Positions 2,836-56,994 of a stretch of 64,000 bases of DNA are shown here, in pieces (positions within the stretch are counted from its first letter, which is position 1; each line of letters opens with the position of its first letter). The stretch is from positions 1 through 64,000 of the IMG/VR virus record IMGVR_UViG_3300037440_000558. One strand, given 5' to 3'. A program made the translations under genes and the position numbers. The notes under the pieces are model-generated. The model ran no database searches, was not told the origin of the DNA, and was given only the letters and a program-made list of their open reading frames with translations. The stretch comes from a virus. Lineage: Duplodnaviria; Caudoviricetes.

Positions 2836-3020
2836 TGCCTGCCGCTGCCGGCGACTGCCCGACCCCGGTCGAGCTGCACGCTGCGAACCGGCGCGGTCCA
2901 GTCGTCGTGTGGTGCGGTTGTGGTGAATGCCCGGAACCCGACCTGACCCCGGAGGAATATCGCCGGCTGGTGGACAATGCACTGTTCGAGCCACCGGAAT
3001 ACCAGGATCGGTTGTGGTAG
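2835..3020 (+). CDS. hypothetical protein
   Basis: TGATG coupling. Confidence 0.4.
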   Translation: MPAAAGDCPTPVELHAANRRGPVVVWCGCGECPEPDLTPEEYRRLVDNALFEPPEYQDRLW

Positions 3021-3241
3021 ATCTCCATGTCTATTTCCGGACGTACTGCTACGGCTGCCGCCGCGGTGCCCGGTGGCATGGCCGGTGCCTGTGGCCACGC
3101 CACCGGTGGGATTGGGAGTACTACATCATGGCGGATGGCCGGCGGTTGGTGCAGCGGCAGTCGTTCGCTTCGTGGGATCGGGCGTGGCGGTCGGCGCAAC
3201 GATCGTGGGCGAAGTTGGCGGTCGCGTTGCGTGAGGTATAA
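3014..3241 (+). CDS. hypothetical protein (Trp/Arg-rich)
   Basis: GTG 3014 in the gene chain. Confidence 0.4.
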   Translation: MVDLHVYFRTYCYGCRRGARWHGRCLWPRHRWDWEYYIMADGRRLVQRQSFASWDRAWRSAQRSWAKLAVALREV

Positions 3242-3266
3242 CAGGGATATCGAGCTGACAAGGGGA

Positions 3267-3296
3267 TTGCCAATTGATACGGGTGCGTGGTAAGGT
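3267..3296 (+). promoter_or_regulatory. putative sigma70-type promoter
   Basis: TTGCCA-N18-TAAGGT in the intergenic gap before 3379. Confidence 0.35.
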
Positions 3297-3378
3297 GGAG
3301 GCTTGACCCCGGAGGTTTGGACCGAGATAGGAGCTAGGCCCCCATGGACCAACCCAACCCCCGACCCCAGGAGAGAGC

Positions 3379-4062
3379 ATGGACTACACGACCGTAAAAC
3401 ATGACCCGTTCGCCGTACCCGTCCTCGCCGCACCCACCCCCGTGTACCGCCGGCCCACTGCCAGCCAGTCGCGGCGCCGTATGCTGGCACGACGGATACG
3501 GCAGATCGAACAGGAACTCGCCGCGCTCGACCAGTTCCCCGACCAGGACCCCCATGAGGACGGGACGATCCTGCGGGTCGTCACCAGCGAGACCGCTGCG
3601 ACACACGCGTACACCTACATCGCCACCCGAATCAACGGCCTGTGGTACACCACCGGCCGCACCGGACCGTACAAGGCCAGTTGGGCGAAGCTCGTCGAGT
3701 GGCTGGTCAGCCGGGCCGAGACGGTCGAGCAGGTCTACCCGCGGCCGTCGTCGGAGGGTGTCGAGTGGATCGAGCCGGTTGTCCGCCGGCACTTCGAGAT
3801 GCGCACCGAAGACGCCGGCTTGGCGTTCCGGCTGATCAGTGACCTCAAGAGCGCTGCACCGTCCGGGCCGGAACATCCGGGGTTGGATTGGGTCGACTCG
3901 ACGGTCGACCGTTGGTTCAGCAAGTGGGGCCAGGATGAACACCCGGTCGGCCTTAGCGCTTTGTCTGACCTGGTCGCGATGTTGCGGCGGGCTGCGCCGT
4001 GGGCCAACCCAGAGGAGCTACACGGGCAGCTGGGCGACATACCACAGGAAGGACCCTCCTAG
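3379..4062 (+). CDS. hypothetical protein
   Basis: 227-aa ORF with strong SD (CAGGAGAGAG). Confidence 0.7.
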   Translation: MDYTTVKHDPFAVPVLAAPTPVYRRPTASQSRRRMLARRIRQIEQELAALDQFPDQDPHEDGTILRVVTSETAATHAYTYIATRINGLWYTTGRTGPYKASWAKLVEWLVSRAETVEQVYPRPSSEGVEWIEPVVRRHFEMRTEDAGLAFRLISDLKSAAPSGPEHPGLDWVDSTVDRWFSKWGQDEHPVGLSALSDLVAMLRRAAPWANPEELHGQLGDIPQEGPS

Positions 4063-4070
4063 AGACGCAC

Positions 4071-4101
4071 CACCGGGGGCGGTGTCACACCGCCCCCGGT
4101 G
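4071..4101. other. perfect 14-bp hairpin
   Basis: CACCGGGGGCGGTG-tca-CACCGCCCCCGGTG. Confidence 0.85.
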
Positions 4102-4104
4102 CCC

Positions 4105-4222
4105 GGGCTGGTATGCCAAGAGGAGAGCAGACCACTGGAGGAGACCGCCGTGGCGCGAAAGCCAACGCGGGTACACGTCCACACTCCTGGTTGTCGTCCG
4201 GGTTCGACTCCCGGCCGGCCCA
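4105..4222 (+). ncRNA. tRNA-like RNA with expanded anticodon arm
   Basis: Acceptor GGGCTGG(4105)/CCGGCCC(4215-4221)+A; U8, D-loop GG; T-arm CCGGG-TTCGACT-CCCGG; about 46 extra nt in the anticodon loop. Confidence 0.65.
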
Positions 4223-4223
4223 C

Positions 4224-4454
4224 ATGAACCAACAGCTAGTTAAATGGTTGTTGCGGAGACTTGCCGACGGTGAGATCGTCGGGCTGTCCCTCACTGACGA
4301 GGAGCGGCGTATCCTTGCTGCCCGAGCTAGGGTCGAAGCTGCCAACGAGACCGACTCCCGTTATTGGCATCTAGACCTGGCCGAACGGCAACGTCGCCAC
4401 GCTCGGTGGTGGCAGATCGCTGACACCCTACACTCCAACCCCTACCAGGAGTAG
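4224..4454 (+). CDS. hypothetical protein
   Basis: ATG directly after the tRNA-like element. Confidence 0.5.
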   Translation: MNQQLVKWLLRRLADGEIVGLSLTDEERRILAARARVEAANETDSRYWHLDLAERQRRHARWWQIADTLHSNPYQE

Positions 4455-4456
4455 CT

Positions 4457-4849
4457 GTGGATACCACTGCAGGCACTAAGACCTTCGGCATCATCGCTAT
4501 GCTGATCATCGCCGCCGTGACCGGTAGCTACATCATCTTCCAGTCGCCCACCGGCGACGACCAGCGTAGCGACCACATCCCTGTCGAATTCTCCGCCCAC
4601 TGGGAACCCGGCGATAACCGGGTCCAGTTCTTCTGGCTGGTCGGGGTCCGAGGTGAAGCCCCGGTAGTCACCGGCCCGAGTTACACTTACAAAGACGTTG
4701 CTCCCCGGGGAGTCAGGGTGGAGCTGCTGGTGATCCCTGAGCTGCCGATGGACCGGTTGACCTGCCGGATCAGCGTCGGGGACCAGCCGCCGGTGTCCGA
4801 TGAAGTGTCCGGTGTGGCACCCTGCCAGGTGGTGGTGACCACCCTGTGA
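4457..4849 (+). CDS. membrane-anchored hypothetical protein
   Basis: N-terminal hydrophobic helix FGIIAMLIIAAVTGSYIIF. Confidence 0.6.
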   Translation: MDTTAGTKTFGIIAMLIIAAVTGSYIIFQSPTGDDQRSDHIPVEFSAHWEPGDNRVQFFWLVGVRGEAPVVTGPSYTYKDVAPRGVRVELLVIPELPMDRLTCRISVGDQPPVSDEVSGVAPCQVVVTTL

Positions 4850-5478
4850 CACTAACCCCAGAATGGCAGGCCCGACTGCACCAGCAACACCCTGACGTCG
4901 AGCAGTGGGAAGACCTTGGCCGGGGGTTGTACCGCGGCGACCGTGGGCAACTGCTGGTCTACGTGTTGATCTTGCCTGACCGGCGGGTCCTGAAGACCCG
5001 CCCAATCCCGGTGGCGTCGACCACCAGTACCGAACCACCCGGCCTGCTGGACGACTCGGAGCTGATCCGCGGTGGGGTGGCCTCGATGGCAGTTTCGTTC
5101 GACTTGGACGAACCCGAGACCGAACAGTGTATCCGGACAGAACTCACCCGGGGAATCGAACACCAGAACCTGCCCGGATGTGTCGTCCCCGCTTGTGAGA
5201 AGAAGGCCACGGTTCGGTTCAAAGCTGCTGAGGCGGGCCGGCTCGCCGGCCGGGACTGGGTGTACGGTGACCCGATCCTGGTCTGCACGGCCCATTCCCA
5301 CGATATCTATCAGGCGCAGGGTGTGTACGGGTTGGACCAGCTCGTGGAATGGCTCCGTCTAGACGCTAGGCTGGACGCGTTTGACCTGTTCGACGCGGCC
5401 ACCGACCTGCTGTATGGGCGGCAGATCGCCCACGACCGCGCCAGGATGTTGCACCTGGTTAGAGAGGAGCCGACGTGA
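4846..5478 (+). CDS. hypothetical protein
   Basis: GTGA coupling, 210 aa. Confidence 0.6.
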   Translation: MTLTPEWQARLHQQHPDVEQWEDLGRGLYRGDRGQLLVYVLILPDRRVLKTRPIPVASTTSTEPPGLLDDSELIRGGVASMAVSFDLDEPETEQCIRTELTRGIEHQNLPGCVVPACEKKATVRFKAAEAGRLAGRDWVYGDPILVCTAHSHDIYQAQGVYGLDQLVEWLRLDARLDAFDLFDAATDLLYGRQIAHDRARMLHLVREEPT

Positions 5479-5792
5479 GCATCGTCGTTGAGCGGGTCCA
5501 AGCTGGCGCGGCCTGGTTGGAAGAGCACGAACCCGGGTGGTTGCATTGGATCGACCGGGACCGGCTGGACCTTGCAAACTGCGCCCGGTGCATCGGTGGA
5601 CAGCTGGCCGGGGTGTATTCGAGCTTCCTGTGGCGGCATGGCTTGACGCACGCCGATGCGATCTCGCTGGGATTCAGCCTGCCGGGCCTTGGCGGGGACT
5701 ACGGGCAGCTGACCGCCGCGTGGCGTGAGTTGATCGACACCCGCCGATCGTCTAAATCATCGAAGGTTAAGGAGGGGACCAATGAAGTATGA
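5475..5792 (+). CDS. conserved actinophage-type hypothetical protein
   Basis: GAAWLEEHEPGW...DL..CARCIGGQL motif; SD GAGGAG. Confidence 0.65.
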   Translation: MSIVVERVQAGAAWLEEHEPGWLHWIDRDRLDLANCARCIGGQLAGVYSSFLWRHGLTHADAISLGFSLPGLGGDYGQLTAAWRELIDTRRSSKSSKVKEGTNEV

Positions 5793-6057
5793 TCGAGACC
5801 GGATCAAACTGGTTGCCGACAAGTGTCGCGATTGCGCCAGGCAGGACCAGGAATATGCGCCCATTATGACTGCCATGGCGGAGCTGTTCCACGCCTATGC
5901 AGTGCTGCGGCCGTTGGATTCACATGGTCGGGACAGGTTGACCTCAGCGATCGACCGGCTGGTCGATCTGACCGAGGAAACGTTCGCTGATGAGCCGGCT
6001 GATGAGCCGGCTGATGAGCCGGCTGATGAGCCGGCTGATGAGGTTGGACCACAGTGA
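5782..6057 (+). CDS. hypothetical protein with ADEP repeats
   Basis: SD GGAGG; C-terminal tandem repeat. Confidence 0.6.
   Translation: MKYDRDRIKLVADKCRDCARQDQEYAPIMTAMAELFHAYAVLRPLDSHGRDRLTSAIDRLVDLTEETFADEPADEPADEPADEPADEVGPQ
5986..6042 (+). repeat. 12-bp tandem repeat GCTGATGAGCCG x4.75
   Basis: Read directly; encodes ADEP. Confidence 0.95.
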
Positions 6058-6235: not shown

Positions 6236-6267
6236 GGGTTGGGTCCATGGGAGGAGAAACCCCGGAA

Positions 6268-7743
6268 ATGCACGACTCGAACGAACGCTGGGCATCCGCT
6301 GCCCTCCGCAATCTGTGGACCGACCGCGAGACCACCATCCAACGCCGCAGACTGTGGGTCGCCGTCCTCCGCGCTCAACTCAAGAACGGCATGATCGCCA
6401 CCGACCATGACCACGGCGATGCCCTGGCCGCCTACGAAGCTGTCATCGGCGCATATAACGCCGAACACATCCACGACAAAGAGCTCCAGACCGGCCACCA
6501 CCTCCAAGCCCACCTGATGGCATTCGAAGAACTCGCCGGTCTCAGCCGTCATGGCGGACAGTTCGGCCTACTCCACCGCGGCCTGACCTCCTGTGATATC
6601 GAAGACCTCGTCACCCAAGGGCAGATCCTCGCCAGCCTCGGGATCATCAACGAGCACTGGGCCGCCGCCACCGAACGGCTCACCAACCTCACCGACGCAC
6701 ACCGGACCACCCCCACCGCTGCCCGCACCCACGGACTCCCCGCCCAGCCATACACCGTCGGACGCCGGCTCGCCAACTACCTCGACCAGACCCTCTACAC
6801 CCATGGTCGGTTCGCCCAATTCCGCAGGTACTACCCCGTCCGGGTGTTAGGTGGCGCAGTCGGCACCCGCAGCGATCTCACTGGACTCGCACCCGACGAA
6901 GCAGCCATCGAGAAGCTGATCGACACCGCCCTGGTCGCGATGGGGCCAGCCACCAGCCACCACCCCGTCTCGGTTGCTACCGGACAGACATATCACCGGC
7001 TGCTCGACTTTGAACTTGCTGCCACCCTCACCCTGCTGACCACCCCCTACACCGGGCTGGCCGCTACCCTCCGCGCGATGGTCACACTCGGCCACGCCAC
7101 CGAACAACCCACCACCGACCAAGTCGGCAGCTCCGCGATGCCCCACAAACGGAACCCCCGATACCTCGAACGGATCGCCGCCCTACACAGCCTGCTCCGC
7201 GGCCACCTCACCACCCTCGCCAACAGCAGCACCGGGCAGCTGTTCGAAGGCGACGTCGCCGACTCCGCAGCTCGCCGGATCGCCATCCCCGGTGCGCTGA
7301 TGGCCGCCGACGGGATCCTCTGCGCAGTCATCACCGCGCTTGACCGGCTCCGGTTCAACGAGCGGGCCATCATAGATGACCACCATTATAACCTGCTGTT
7401 CATCTCCACCGGGTGGCTGCTGGCACAGGCCGTCCAGCACAACCCCGACGCTGACCGGCACGCACTGCACGGACGGATCAGACACCACGCCGCTGATGCT
7501 TTGGATATGGTCAACCGGAACCACCCGCGGTGGGCAATCACCGAGTATTTCGCCAAGGCGCTGAGAGCCGACCAGATGCTCGGGTTGACCGACGACGACC
7601 TGGTCGCCGCCCGACGCTCGCCACCGCTCGGGCAAGCCCACGAACAGACCAGCAGCGTCCTGTCCCATGCTCGGATACTGTTGGGCAGCTACCTCACCAA
7701 CACCCGCGGATGGACCCCCGAGAAGGAGAGAGAAACCCTATGA
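6268..7743 (+). CDS. purB: adenylosuccinate lyase (fumarase/ASL superfamily)
   Basis: Signature GSSAMPHKRNP, RTHGLPAQP, HRGLTSCDI, GAVGT; SD GGAGGAG before ATG 6268 (alternative start 6247). Confidence 0.9.
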   Translation: MHDSNERWASAALRNLWTDRETTIQRRRLWVAVLRAQLKNGMIATDHDHGDALAAYEAVIGAYNAEHIHDKELQTGHHLQAHLMAFEELAGLSRHGGQFGLLHRGLTSCDIEDLVTQGQILASLGIINEHWAAATERLTNLTDAHRTTPTAARTHGLPAQPYTVGRRLANYLDQTLYTHGRFAQFRRYYPVRVLGGAVGTRSDLTGLAPDEAAIEKLIDTALVAMGPATSHHPVSVATGQTYHRLLDFELAATLTLLTTPYTGLAATLRAMVTLGHATEQPTTDQVGSSAMPHKRNPRYLERIAALHSLLRGHLTTLANSSTGQLFEGDVADSAARRIAIPGALMAADGILCAVITALDRLRFNERAIIDDHHYNLLFISTGWLLAQAVQHNPDADRHALHGRIRHHAADALDMVNRNHPRWAITEYFAKALRADQMLGLTDDDLVAARRSPPLGQAHEQTSSVLSHARILLGSYLTNTRGWTPEKERETL

Positions 7744-10026: not shown

Positions 10027-10479
10027 ATGTCTGACCGTCCCAATTGCACCCTGTTCCTGAACCCCCTCGACTACGACACGATCGCCGGCCGTGCCGCCAC
10101 CGACTACCCGAACGAATCCTGCGGGGTCATCCTCGGTCGGGTGACCGGTGACCGGTACTACGCAACACGCACCCTCCCGGTTCCCAACGTCCACCCCAAC
10201 CCCACCCACTTCTATACCATGGACCCTCCCACCCAGCTTGAGGTGTACCAACTCGCCGACCAGCTCCAACTGCACCCGCTGTGTGTCTGGCACACCCACA
10301 CCACCGCATCATCTACCACCTACCCCTCGGCCGCCGACATCGACAACGCACATGACCCCCGTGTGCTGCAGTTGATCCTGCGCATACAGGATGGTACCCT
10401 GACCGGACAGGACCTGTGGCAAGTTAACCGCCACGCCGACCCGCCTGTGACCCCGGCCCGATTGGAGCTTCTCCCATGA
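10027..10479 (+). CDS. JAB/MPN (Mov34, M67/Mec-like) metallopeptidase
   Basis: ESCGVILG and WHTH-x9-SAAD JAMM motif. Confidence 0.85.
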   Translation: MSDRPNCTLFLNPLDYDTIAGRAATDYPNESCGVILGRVTGDRYYATRTLPVPNVHPNPTHFYTMDPPTQLEVYQLADQLQLHPLCVWHTHTTASSTTYPSAADIDNAHDPRVLQLILRIQDGTLTGQDLWQVNRHADPPVTPARLELLP

Positions 10480-10856
10480 ACGGACCCCGCGTGTTCGGTC
10501 GTGAACCGGCCCTGTGGACCCAACTCGCAGCCGCCGCTCTCGGTGTCCTGGTCGGATTCGGTATGCCCGGGCTGACCGACCACCAAGCCGCCGCAGGTAT
10601 CGCCGTCATCAACACCGGGTTCGGCGTGTGGATGGCCATCCGGGTCCGCCCGGTCGTCCCCGCGGTGTTCACTACCTTCGTCGCAGCCACGTTCGCGCTG
10701 TTGGCCGCCTACGGACTTGACGCCACCCAACAGAGCATCGCCGCAGTCAACATCCTGGTCCTGTCCGCGTTGGCGTTCATCGCTCGCGGGCAGGTCTCAC
10801 CCGACCAGGACATCGACCCCGCGGTACTCGGCCGGGCGGAACGTACCCACCTGTGA
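10476..10856 (+). CDS. holin-like membrane protein
   Basis: VFGREPALW N-terminus typical of actinophage holins; about 4 hydrophobic helices. Confidence 0.6.
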   Translation: MNGPRVFGREPALWTQLAAAALGVLVGFGMPGLTDHQAAAGIAVINTGFGVWMAIRVRPVVPAVFTTFVAATFALLAAYGLDATQQSIAAVNILVLSALAFIARGQVSPDQDIDPAVLGRAERTHL

Positions 10857-54867: not shown

Positions 54868-55305
54868 GTGAACCTCAACCAGGCAATCCGGACCGTGTTC
54901 ATCGACCAGACCAACGGCTGGGCCGGAGACACCAACCCCACCCCCCGCGAGGCCATCGACCACGCCCGGAACGTCCTGTCCGTGGATTCGCTGCTGGACA
55001 TCGGCGACGGCAACTACGGCGCCTACCGGCTGGTCCTAGAGGCCAGCGACGAGGCGATCGAGGCCGCGTTGAACGCCCTCGATGCTGCCCCCGACGACGG
55101 CCGGACCCCGAAGCAGATCAAGATCGAGGACGCGCAGAGCTGGCGCGAAGACGACGTTCTGATCGGGTTCACCCGGGTCTATGACTCGAAGAAGTCCGAG
55201 ACCGAGACCGTGGCGCTCACCCTGGACGAGCTGCAGGAGCTGATCATCCAAGCCCACGCGATTTTGATGGCCAAGCGTGGCGAGTGCATCACCAGCCGCA
55301 GCTGA
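54868..55305 (+). CDS. hypothetical protein (C-terminal domain paralogous to the next gene)
   Basis: SD GAGGAGG; VALTLDELQELII.A.A.LMAKRG. Confidence 0.65.
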   Translation: MNLNQAIRTVFIDQTNGWAGDTNPTPREAIDHARNVLSVDSLLDIGDGNYGAYRLVLEASDEAIEAALNALDAAPDDGRTPKQIKIEDAQSWREDDVLIGFTRVYDSKKSETETVALTLDELQELIIQAHAILMAKRGECITSRS

Positions 55306-55735
55306 CCAGTCCGGTGGGGGGCGGGTAACCCGCCCCCACGCCGGATCGGCCAGACCCCCGGAAGGAGACAAGCCATGGAACGAACGTTCGAATACGAAGA
55401 GGTGACCTGGCGTCCCGACGCCGAAGTACATCTTAAGGTCCGCGAACAGACCAACGCCAAGCAGACCCGCACCACCATCGTGGCACTGACCTACGACGAG
55501 CTGCAGGAGCTGGTCATCGGGGCCACCGCAGAACTGATGCGGAAGCGCGGCCGGGCGGTCTACACCCGCCACTCGGAAGACACCCACGTCCGCCCGCACC
55601 CCAACATCGAGGCAGCCCGCGACCAGGCAGCCACCCGGAACGCGCAGCGGTACGGGACCGACCCCAGTTGGTACGGCTGCTGACCAGTCCGGTCGGGGAC
55701 GGGCAACCCCCGCCCCCGCGCCGGATCGGCCAGAC
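55301..55735 (+). repeat. about 55-bp intergenic direct repeat, two copies (55301-55355, 55679-55735)
   Basis: GCTGACCAGTCCGGT-GGGG..CGGG.AACC.CGCCCC..CGCCGGATCGGCCAGAC. Confidence 0.9.
55375..55683 (+). CDS. hypothetical protein
   Basis: SD GAAGGAG; VALTYDELQELVI.A.A.LMRKRG. Confidence 0.65.
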   Translation: MERTFEYEEVTWRPDAEVHLKVREQTNAKQTRTTIVALTYDELQELVIGATAELMRKRGRAVYTRHSEDTHVRPHPNIEAARDQAATRNAQRYGTDPSWYGC

Positions 55736-55764
55736 ACCCTGACCGACCCCCCAGAGGAGGAATC

Positions 55765-56994
55765 ATGGGAGCACGGAACGCAACCCTTGAGCAGCTCGCC
55801 GAACTGCTCCGCGACGAGCACGCCCGGAAGCTGGACGTCGTCGTCCCCGCAATCGGGATCGAGATGACCGACGGGAACCTCACTCTCCGCGGCGTCGAGG
55901 CCGAACTGACCGAAGACGGGGTCACCCCCGTCGACGGCAACTACACCCCGACCGCGGTCTGCGACAGCGGGCTGGCCGACCGGCTCGGCATCCCACCCGG
56001 GTATTACAACCGGATGCGCCGCGACCACGTCGAACTGCTCGGTAAGAACGTCAACGGCTGGCTCAAGGACGCGGCACAGGAAGGCCGGAAGTACCTGGTC
56101 CGGACCTTCCGCGGCGACGGTGGCGGCCCGGGGATCGCGCGGGCGTTCCTCACGGACTCGTACCGGCCGATCGACAACCTGGACGTGCTGATGGCCGCCC
56201 TGGACGGCGTGAAGCAGGCCGGCGCCCCGGTGAAGATCGAGGCATGTGACCTGACCGAGACCCGGATGCGGGTCAGGGTCTGGTCGGATGAGGTCGTGGC
56301 GTGGGCACCGAAGCTGCTGGAGCGTTACCGGTCGCCGTTCGACAACGGCGGCGGGATCGTCCGGGCCGGTGACTGGGTGCCGGAGAACAATGGCCCGATC
56401 CGCGACGAGAACGTCGCCCGGTGGATGCGGGTGGCTGACGCTGAGGGGCAGGGGTACAAGCCGGGGACCGAGCCGATCGTGTTCGGTGGGTTTGAGATCT
56501 CCAACTCGGAAGTCGGCCGGGGTAGGTTCCAGATCGTCCCGCGGATCGTTGTCCGGATCTGCCGTAACGGGCTCACCTTCCCGATGGATGCGTTCGCGCG
56601 GCAGCACCTCGGGGCGAAGCTGGACGCCGGGGTCATCAAGTGGGGTGACGACACCCAGCAGAAGAACCTGGACGTGGTGACATTGCAGGCGCGAGACGCG
56701 GTCCGGACTTTCCTGGACGTCGACTACGTCACCAAGAAGATCCAGCAGCTGGAGGCCAAGGCCGACACTCCAGTTGGGGACCCGGCGAAGGCCGTCGAGT
56801 TCATCTCCAAGAAGCTGCGGTACACCGAGGACCGGCAGGCTGACATCCTGGCGCACTTCATCCGCGGCGGGCAGATGACCGCCGGTGGTGTCCTGAACGC
56901 GATGACCTCGCTGGCACAGGCAGTAGATGACGCCGACGCGGCGTCCGAGCTGGAAGCCGACGCGGTCCGCGCGATGGAGCTGGTGGCCGCGTAG
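55765..56994 (+). CDS. DUF932-family protein
   Basis: QLADRLGIP-like LADRLGIP..YY, RAFL.DSY..IDN, GFEISNSEVG.G, R.VC.NG-like VRICRNG. Confidence 0.75.
   Translation: MGARNATLEQLAELLRDEHARKLDVVVPAIGIEMTDGNLTLRGVEAELTEDGVTPVDGNYTPTAVCDSGLADRLGIPPGYYNRMRRDHVELLGKNVNGWLKDAAQEGRKYLVRTFRGDGGGPGIARAFLTDSYRPIDNLDVLMAALDGVKQAGAPVKIEACDLTETRMRVRVWSDEVVAWAPKLLERYRSPFDNGGGIVRAGDWVPENNGPIRDENVARWMRVADAEGQGYKPGTEPIVFGGFEISNSEVGRGRFQIVPRIVVRICRNGLTFPMDAFARQHLGAKLDAGVIKWGDDTQQKNLDVVTLQARDAVRTFLDVDYVTKKIQQLEAKADTPVGDPAKAVEFISKKLRYTEDRQADILAHFIRGGQMTAGGVLNAMTSLAQAVDDADAASELEADAVRAMELVAA

Follow-up and report, generated by a model that had tools for sequence, protein, structure and literature searches.

A putative, conserved tRNA-like RNA with an extended anticodon arm as a candidate punctuation signal in an actinobacterial phage

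Introduction

Several RNAs with the shape of a transfer RNA (tRNA) do not decode, and the mascRNA of MALAT1 is one precedent for their use in RNA processing. The closest one is found in plant mitochondria, where tRNA-like 't-elements' define the ends of messenger RNAs (mRNAs) (PMC1920247): these are non-decoding modules within longer transcripts, with an acceptor/T-arm stack, and their borders, cut by the ordinary tRNA 5' and 3' endonucleases, are the ends of the flanking mRNAs. The non-decoding YrlA RNAs (PMC4201824) and tmRNA have an acceptor/T-arm/D-arm module joined to a long helix at the place of the anticodon arm, and the 'enigmatic' introns of Lak megaphages (PMC6784885) are conserved anticodon-loop inserts of ~40-60 nucleotides (nt) in tRNA genes, with no known route of removal. 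Here, we describe a tRNA-like element of 118 nt at positions 4105-4222 of the IMG/VR virus record IMGVR_UViG_3300037440_000558. The stretch analysed (the window) is the first 64 kb of this 80,560-bp record, which has 64% G+C and represents a genome that is ~90% complete; all features placed below are on its plus strand.

The element is a variation on known kinds of RNA: tRNA-like elements that serve processing, and phage tRNAs whose inserts are unexplained. It is like the t-elements in being a tRNA-shaped, apparently non-decoding module with an acceptor/T-arm stack, within what is predicted to be a longer transcript, and cleavage by the ordinary tRNA end-processing enzymes is likewise predicted for it. 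It differs from both t-elements and mascRNA in belonging to a bacterial virus, in its long structured anticodon-arm extension and in a 3' end that abuts a start codon, and it has no sequence homology to either. The Lak introns resemble it in insert length and position within a phage tRNA-type gene, whereas its 'exons' appear unfit for a chargeable tRNA, no RNA ligase was found in the phage genome, and the host belongs to the high-GC Actinobacteria rather than the gut Bacteroidota. YrlA is circularly permuted, with its ends in the Ro-binding stem, and works with Ro, a TROVE protein encoded nearby, whereas the phage element has the 5'-to-3' order of a tRNA and the genome has no TROVE domain. tmRNA needs a G3.U70 pair and a tag reading frame, and has pseudoknots; the phage element has G-C at 3:70 in all three copies known, contains no tag frame, and ARAGORN run with -m finds no tmRNA. 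Group I introns have a catalytic core (P3-P9) and usually measure at least 200 nt, compared with an insert of 46 nt that has no Intron_gpI match at E up to 10. A first-pass annotation, made from the letters of the window, had set aside these same three identities (group I intron, tmRNA and permuted YrlA-type RNA), and each exclusion was confirmed.

Results

Detection, homologues and conservation

ARAGORN in its default mode and Rfam at gathering thresholds reported nothing at the element. When introns of up to 200 nt were allowed, ARAGORN gave one match in the window, a tRNA-Ser(GGA) at 4105-4223 with an insert at 4142-4187, so that the ARAGORN search proposed as a check by the first-pass annotation calls the element in intron mode only. 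The same mode applied to 4.8 Mb of dinucleotide-shuffled genome yielded 11 matches, or ~0.18 per genome. The element scored 105.0, the eight captured shuffle scores were all 103.3 or less, and the two real tRNAs of the phage scored 118 and 124; the ARAGORN score on its own is therefore borderline. The Rfam tRNA model (RF00005, gathering score 29 bits) had no match at the element even at E up to 10, compared with 64.6 and 57.8 bits for the canonical tRNA-Lys and tRNA-Gln of the phage. A permissive Rfam search returned chance-level matches only, and none to tRNA, tmRNA or group I introns that was noteworthy; a weak match to mascRNA-menRNA (RF01684) at 4167-4221 (13.9 bits, E 5.8) reflects only the common T-arm and acceptor shape.

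We take the element as real because it is placed in a 161-nt gap that is non-coding on the coding strand (G+C is lower at third than at second codon positions), and because it is conserved, with compensatory changes, in two other phages, both metagenomic relatives. These copies were found through the protein encoded two genes downstream (4846-5478), which has a small family: the contigs of its closest members, an 18-kb JGI contig (L011) and a 1.4-kb ENA contig (L013), each yielded a further copy. The upstream 227-aa protein had no match in such searches except itself. L011 is syntenic with the window, in the order upstream-gene homologue, hairpin, element, P0003, PurB-like lyase, Tad3, JAB and terminase. 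ARAGORN also names the L011 and L013 copies tRNA-Ser(GGA), and gives the insert as 46 nt in the former and 38 nt in the latter. Between the window and L011, nucleotide identity is 96.6% in the element, compared with 63.7% in the upstream gene, 78.6% in the downstream (P0002) gene and lyase, and 85.5% in the terminase; between the window and L013 it is 82.2% in the element (89% without gap columns) and 61.9% in the adjacent gene. The element is thus the best-conserved stretch of its neighbourhood, which suggests that it is under purifying selection.

Conservation is distributed in a way that preserves the modelled structure. A block of 31 nt (4110-4140) is invariant in the three copies; it begins at acceptor position 6, takes in the D-arm and anticodon stem, and closes with CUGGAG. 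All 29 modelled pairs are kept in each copy (87 of 87 pair cells are standard pairs), whereas only 34-51% of cells were paired in a control with partners slid by 1-3 columns. Two acceptor pairs show compensatory changes across the window, L011 and L013, namely 4:69 (C-G, C-G, U-A) and 5:68 (U.G, U-A, C-G), while 7:66 reads G-C, G-C and G.U. The remaining changes are confined to predicted loops or to the tip of the hairpin within the insert: U47.G63 to C-G and C58 to U preserve pairing there, and in L013 a shorter stem of 5 bp, with GAGUAG as its loop, takes the place of the tip. In the extended anticodon arm the helices are invariant and for that reason uninformative for covariation. Overall, covariation supports the structure, short of proof.

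A covariance model built from the three copies (R1) was run on the gathered sequences and 153 genomes, and scored the window element at 154 bits, L011 at 156 and L013 at 130. Its top identified matches in two actinobacterial genomes were ordinary tRNA genes (33-40 bits, tRNA-Lys first), and it also picked up the phages' own canonical tRNAs. Since the model recovers ordinary tRNA genes, the core is independently tRNA-like. Among 151 Micromonosporaceae genomes R1 found ordinary tRNAs and no element, and there is no such element upstream of six distant members of the protein family (P0005, P0006, P0008, P0009, P0013 and P0021). A blastn search of the element against cultured phages returned generic T-arms only; scans of IMG/VR with patterns for the D-arm, for the 3' half and for the exon blocks separated by a gap, and scans of JGI metagenome contigs, gave no further copy; and in a genome collection of 185,579 species none has the element's 3' half. 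The family therefore has three known members. The first-pass annotation had held that a lack of covarying homologues, or a match to a described Rfam family, would count against it; we found two homologues with compensatory changes and no Rfam family. Taken together, these comparisons indicate that the element is probably a genuine, conserved and previously undescribed tRNA-like RNA.

Anatomy of the element

The element runs from G1 at 4105 to discriminator A73 at 4222, as delimited by ARAGORN in intron mode and by R1. The acceptor stem has 7 bp, formed by GGGCTGG (4105-4111) and CCGGCCC (4215-4221) with one U5.G68 pair, and is followed by U8 at 4112. The D-arm (4114-4129, ARAGORN) has a 3-bp stem (TGC/GCA) and a 10-nt loop with G18G19 at 4122-4123; the stem shows a C13.A22 mismatch, and no N26 separates it from the anticodon stem. 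The latter pairs GACCA (4130-4134) with TGGTT (4188-4192), the 5' strand being invariant in the three copies. The variable region is GTCGT (4193-4197; 4 nt in L013), and the T-arm (4198-4214) consists of CCGGG and CCCGG around TTCGACT, the sole GGTTCGANYC T-loop motif in the window. Discriminator A4222 closes the acceptor 3' strand (4215-4222), CCA is not encoded, and C-A-T comes next. Several features of a canonical tRNA are therefore present: the 7-bp acceptor stem, a 5-bp T-stem, a 7-nt T-loop (T54-T55-C56-R57-A58), G18G19 and U8. The first-pass annotation had located these parts, from acceptor stem to discriminator, correctly, together with the C-T-GGA after the anticodon stem, the 118-nt length and an insert of ~46 nt, the length that ARAGORN also gives. 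Its description of the L-shaped core as intact went too far: the core is tRNA-like, but given the short D-stem, the mismatch in it and the missing N26 it is near-canonical rather than intact.

The nominal anticodon loop, C32-U33-GGA-G-G (4135-4141, from ARAGORN and the fold), is interrupted by the insert at 4142-4187 (46 nt by the ARAGORN boundaries; 38 nt in L013). In the predicted fold C4135 and U4136 are bulged, and G4137-G4140 pair with the invariant CUCC at 4184-4187 (C4184-C4187), which would place the nominal anticodon and G37 within a helix. The GGAG/CTCC and CCGC...GCGG pairings noted in the first-pass annotation are both present, although GGAG (4137-4140) straddles the insert boundary and does not lie wholly within 4141-4186 as proposed there. 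The inner, GC-rich hairpin of the insert (4145-4170) has a GCGAAA loop at 4155-4160 and a conserved CCGC...GCGG base. It is followed on the 3' side by a predicted single strand of 13 nt, GUACACGUCCACA (4171-4183), which is nearly conserved, L013 having one deletion and one transition. The insert thus folds as one imperfect hairpin plus this single strand, and contains no T-loop motif and no NCCA end. It was therefore rejected as a minihelix mini-intron of the Lak type, in which the insert takes the form of an acceptor stem and T-arm with a terminal NCCA. Neither the whole element (z = -0.5) nor the extended arm (z = -0.8) has a better folding energy than shuffled sequences.

A canonical tRNA was rejected as an identity on the grounds of the interrupted anticodon arm, the missing RF00005 match and a GGA anticodon without a long variable arm. 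No alternative cloverleaf fits in which a long variable arm takes the place of the insert, and no second copy in the genome marks the insert as a repeat or mobile element. With a GGA anticodon and a variable region of only 5 nt (4 nt in L013), as the first-pass annotation had pointed out, the element would not be a normal tRNA-Ser, and the non-decoding tRNA-like role proposed there fits best.

A hairpin upstream and a start codon at the 3' end

The element is bordered on both sides by features of the flanking genes. Upstream, a GC-rich hairpin (4070-4101; a perfect 14-bp stem and 3-nt loop, identified from sequence and fold, with no U-tract) begins 8 nt past the TAG stop codon (4060-4062) of the 227-aa open reading frame (ORF), and three bases (CCC) separate it from the element. 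At the same position in L011 and L013 there is a GC hairpin of unrelated sequence, and the three hairpins end 3-9 nt before the element; identity between the window and L011 is only 53% in the hairpin region. Downstream, C4223 is a one-base spacer between discriminator A4222 and ATG 4224, and the junction ...CCCA-C-ATG is common to the window, L011 and L013.

The ATG past the element opens three unrelated ORFs: one of 76 aa in the window, P0003 in L011, and a hydrophobic, membrane-like ORF of 30 aa in L013. In L011 this ATG is the called start of P0003, whose N-terminus aligns with homologues, and in L013 the 30-aa ORF is coupled to P0004 by GTGA. Because the ATG opens a different ORF in each phage, the mosaic junctions lie exactly at the start codon, and the spacing from discriminator to ATG appears to have been kept across at least two independent gene replacements. 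The one-base spacer leaves no space for a Shine-Dalgarno (SD) sequence, and no SD is present in the 22 nt before ATG 4224, nor in L011 or L013. No sigma-70-like promoter was found in 3000-5500, and a promoter inside the element that would give a leaderless transcript was rejected upon inspection (no TANNNT at the right distance from ATG 4224).

Two other hairpin-bearing intercistronic gaps of the phage carry a C-run and a strong SD. At 55301-55375 and 55682-55767, nested GC hairpins are anchored at the stop codon and followed by the C-rich run and SD. Hairpin, C-run and strong SD appear to be the usual intercistronic architecture of this phage, in contrast to the tRNA-like locus. The canonical tRNA-Gln is likewise followed by a gap of ~60 nt with an SD-like GGAG before the next GTG.

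Discussion

A possible punctuation signal

Of the functions that the first-pass annotation had listed for the RNA, the upstream hairpin and the ATG placed one base past the discriminator in three phages point to that of a substrate of RNase P and RNase Z. We propose that the element is a conserved, tRNA-derived, non-decoding RNA acting as a punctuation signal in a polycistronic phage transcript, and put the probability of this reading at roughly 45%. Transcription would pass through the hairpin at 4070-4101, which lacks a U-tract; host RNase P would cleave 5' of G4105, so that the upstream mRNA keeps the hairpin as protection at its 3' end; and host RNase Z would cleave past discriminator A4222, as it does on actinobacterial pre-tRNAs without CCA. 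A stable tRNA-like RNA of 118 nt, likely a substrate for CCA addition, would be freed, and the downstream mRNA would begin C-AUG and be translated leaderless or near-leaderless. Passage of transcription, both cleavages and leaderless translation are what we infer from the arrangement of the locus.

Leaderless translation is common in Actinobacteria. In Streptomyces coelicolor, 53 of 65 tRNA genes have no encoded CCA, and the leader is under 10 nt long in 264 mRNAs (PMC4681348). The borders are of the kind found in t-elements: an acceptor/T-arm stack and a discriminator without CCA, placed between cistrons on the transcribed strand, with the same arrangement in L011 and L013. We prefer the punctuation reading because it is the simplest mechanism that uses the hairpin, the element, the one-base spacing and the ATG without SD together.

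Several points weigh against it. An SD core precedes only 41 of 105 starts (by crude gene calls), and a missing SD is therefore not unique to ATG 4224. The shared CACATG could partly stem from common ancestry of the recombination junction rather than from constraint on spacing. Covariation statistics are weak, with shuffles matching the observed values in 117 of 500 trials, because there are only three sequences and two of them are 97% identical. RNase P and RNase Z would need no more than an acceptor/T-arm minihelix, so that punctuation alone leaves the invariant 31-nt D-arm/anticodon block and the conserved insert unexplained. Finally, the punctuation reading assumes that an mRNA with a one-base leader and a 5' monophosphate is translatable and stable.

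Alternative explanations

Since conservation of the D-arm, anticodon stem and insert goes beyond what punctuation needs, the released RNA may have a second role in trans. Such a role could also be the primary one, with the RNA serving as a non-decoding mimic (a decoy or inhibitor of a host tRNA-targeting nuclease or tRNA-binding enzyme, or a ligand of a phage protein) and its position at a start codon being secondary; we regard this as unlikely, while noting that it is compatible with, and does not exclude, the punctuation reading. The invariant block and the nearly conserved 13-nt strand exceed the needs of a processing signal, the nominal anticodon is masked in a helix in the predicted fold, and the phage encodes at least one anti-defence homologue, Tad3. 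tRNA-Lys(UUU), tRNA-Gln(UUG) and tRNA-Glu(UUC) are the classic targets of anticodon nucleases, a trio with a modified U34, and the phages carry the first two and, in L011, the third. However, a search of the phage genome yielded no Ro, no RtcB and no other protein recognisable as an RNA-binding partner, and a trans role by itself leaves the exact one-base spacing to three different start codons unexplained. In a combined form, the tRNA module would replace an SD leader, excision by RNase P and RNase Z would yield a hairpin-protected upstream mRNA and a leaderless operon mRNA, and the excised 118-nt RNA, with its masked anticodon, would persist as a stable tRNA mimic, for example against tRNA-targeting defence; we consider this possible but doubtful.

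The splicing route that the first-pass annotation had offered as an alternative did not hold up. Here the element would be an intron-containing tRNA, from which host endonucleases and a ligase such as RtcB remove the 46-nt insert by an undescribed bacterial route to leave a GGA tRNA of 72-73 nt. ARAGORN models the element in this way, the insert occupies the classical 37/38-38/39 site and, like archaeal and eukaryal introns, is paired with the anticodon, its length varies (46 or 38 nt) between almost invariant 'exons', and short unexplained inserts are on record in Lak megaphage tRNAs (PMC6784885). The fold, however, contains no bulge-helix-bulge: C32 and U33 are bulged on the 5' strand, the GGAG/CUCC helix stacks straight on the anticodon stem with no bulge on the 3' strand, and on the opposite side of this 4-bp helix are loops of 4 and 13 nt. 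In a bulge-helix-bulge, a 4-bp helix is flanked by two bulges of 3 nt, one on each strand, and in a 37/38 intron residues 32-35 are paired to the 3' end of the intron. No EndA (PF01974), RtcB (PF01139) or Rnl2-type ligase (PF09414) was found in the ~90% complete phage genome, while a search for Rnl1 (PF09511), whose control found nothing, carries no weight either way; a splicing ligase could still be supplied by the host, which is bacterial, a further point against the route. The long variable arm is the main identity element for seryl-tRNA synthetase (SerRS), and the spliced product would have a 5-nt variable region without that arm, a G37, a 3-bp D-stem and no N26. In addition, UCC is not a rare codon type at 64% GC, whereas the real tRNAs of the phages read A-ending codons, which are rare in high-GC hosts. 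Splicing is thus improbable. An archaeal virus with an ordinary bulge-helix-bulge intron was ruled out by the Streptomyces-phage-like terminase together with the missing motif and EndA.

We also considered a decaying pseudogene, an old tRNA gene broken by insertion and with no present function. The borderline ARAGORN score (105.0, compared with a maximum of 103.3 among the eight captured shuffle scores), the silent Rfam tRNA model, the imperfect D-arm and a folding energy no better than that of shuffles would all suit such a relic. Yet in two diverged relatives nothing in the neighbourhood is as well conserved as the element, every acceptor-stem substitution keeps pairing, and the deletion in L013 preserves a hairpin, which makes decay very improbable. 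Translation of the region is in our view more improbable still. A small ORF could run from GTG 4150 to TGA 4225-4227, overlapping ATG 4224 for termination-reinitiation, or a protein could start at ATG 4113. The former has an SD-like GGAGGAG 6 nt before its GTG, 25 codons, and a stop that overlaps ATG 4224 as ATGA (4137-4227 in all); in L011 this frame ends in an ATGA that falls on codon 3 of P0003. In L013, however, the GTG is GCG and the frame holds a stop, so that this ORF is probably fortuitous; both substitutions within it between the window and L011 are non-synonymous yet keep RNA pairs, and G+C by codon position (0.69/0.73/0.63) is the reverse of the coding pattern of the genome (~0.67/0.48/0.80). 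The frame of ATG 4113 is open and in frame with ATG 4224 or its counterpart in all three phages, the L013 indels summing to 9 nt, but no SD precedes ATG 4113, and the peptide is not conserved because the middle of the frame is shifted in L013. We give least credence to the idea that the element is an attP (a phage attachment site), or a scar left by integration in a host tRNA gene that the phage captured. Integration often targets tRNA genes, and for many integrases the crossover lies in the anticodon loop; an attP, though, normally holds the 3' part of the tRNA only, whereas here two halves flank an insert. The ~90% complete genome yielded no tyrosine integrase, and the 3' half is present in none of the 185,579-species collection and the element in none of the 151 Micromonosporaceae genomes.

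tRNA-like elements in cultured actinophages

The T-arm matches in cultured actinophages proved to be unannotated intergenic tRNA-like elements on the coding strand, with an aberrant or absent anticodon arm. They share with the present element an acceptor stem, a canonical T-arm and a discriminator, and most begin within ~10 nt of the upstream stop. They differ in being shorter (46-76 nt), without the 31-nt block or the insert, and in that the next gene follows 20-45 nt on with its own SD; R1 scores them at 20-28 bits, and there is no sequence homology beyond generic tRNA features.

Mycobacterium phage Konstantine (FJ174691.1) has four, at 264-327, 736-782, 1494-1539 and 2253-2298, of ~46-64 nt and in successive gaps. 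Three of the four begin within ~10 nt of the upstream stop. All four have an acceptor stem, a GGTTCGA or GGTTCAA T-arm and discriminator A, and in every case a small hairpin comes next, ahead of the SD and start codon; the four resemble a repeated intercistronic signal of tRNA-like form. In Gordonia phage Morgana, elements lie at ~560-605, 1490-1532, 1580-1620 and 1864-1928, including tandem copies. That of Microbacterium phage Count (1468-1529) has a D-arm and no anticodon arm, and that of Microbacterium phage RunningBrook (1455-1530) has a 5-nt 'anticodon' loop and is annotated tRNA-OTHER. No description of the elements in these four phages was found in the searchable literature. Judging from these examples, intercistronic elements of tRNA-like form seem to be common among actinophages, and the present element would be an elaborate member of this loose class.

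A T-arm-like match of a different kind occurs in Streptomyces phage Faust (NC_070783.1), at ~1440-1530 in an unannotated gap of 285 nt, ~700 nt upstream of a gene for a 'Ro-like RNA binding protein'. This match is a candidate for a phage-borne Y RNA of the YrlA type.

The source phage and its gene neighbourhood

The large terminase of the phage (13120-14706) has Streptomyces phage terminases as its nearest relatives (41-46% identity), from which we conclude that the host is an actinobacterium and not an archaeon. Micromonosporaceae metagenome-assembled genomes (MAGs) hold distant homologues of a gene neighbouring the tRNA-like element. One such MAG carries 19 tRNA genes of many isotypes on one strand within ~2.6 kb (L027, G001:C350:10135-13213), probably a phage or prophage tRNA array. 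A megablast search with window positions 3000-6000 against 50,697 phage records gave zero matches, as did tblastn with the two flanking proteins against phages, and neither the 227-aa flanking protein nor the terminase has a close relative in IMG/VR; the phage thus appears to be an orphan.

The upstream 227-aa ORF, identified from sequence, ends at TAG 4060-4062, and the 76-aa ORF (4224-4454) heads a series of cistrons with translational coupling (4224-4454, 4457-4849 and 4846-5478). A 9-bp hairpin, ACCAACAGC..., is predicted at 4229-4252, just inside the 76-aa ORF and 5 nt past ATG 4224. Further downstream are a Lyase_1 (PurB-like) gene at 6247-7743 and, adjoining it, a gene for a protein homologous to Tad3, an inhibitor of Thoeris (PF25185; the best E in the proteome is 3e-26), placed at window ~7.5-8.4 kb by synteny with L011 5474-6151; a Prok-JAB protein follows beyond this. 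The two canonical tRNAs lie outside the window, tRNA-Lys(UUU) at 73330-73403 and tRNA-Gln(UUG) at 73542-73613 of the record (10330-10403 and 10542-10613 of sequence L008), and L011 has a canonical tRNA-Glu(UUC) at 1739-1812. Right after the two tRNAs, at record ~73670-74715, is an Adenylsucc_synt gene (PurA- or PurZ-like). The pair of adenylosuccinate-lyase-like and adenylosuccinate-synthetase-like genes may belong to a pathway for 2-aminoadenine (Z) or another purine modification.

Implications

If the combined form of the proposal is true, mitochondrial-style tRNA punctuation and leaderless translation would come together in a phage. If the punctuation reading is right, actinobacterial phages can set translation starts by RNA processing and not by a ribosome-binding site, borrowing the tRNA-maturation enzymes of the host as happens in organelles. 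This would add a route to leaderless mRNAs, which are abundant but poorly explained in Actinobacteria, and would account for 'odd tRNA' calls that annotation pipelines drop. The occurrence of the Konstantine, Morgana, Count and RunningBrook elements in cultured phages makes a bench test of the idea possible, and the conserved anticodon-arm extension of the present element is a candidate for a new tRNA-mimic function.

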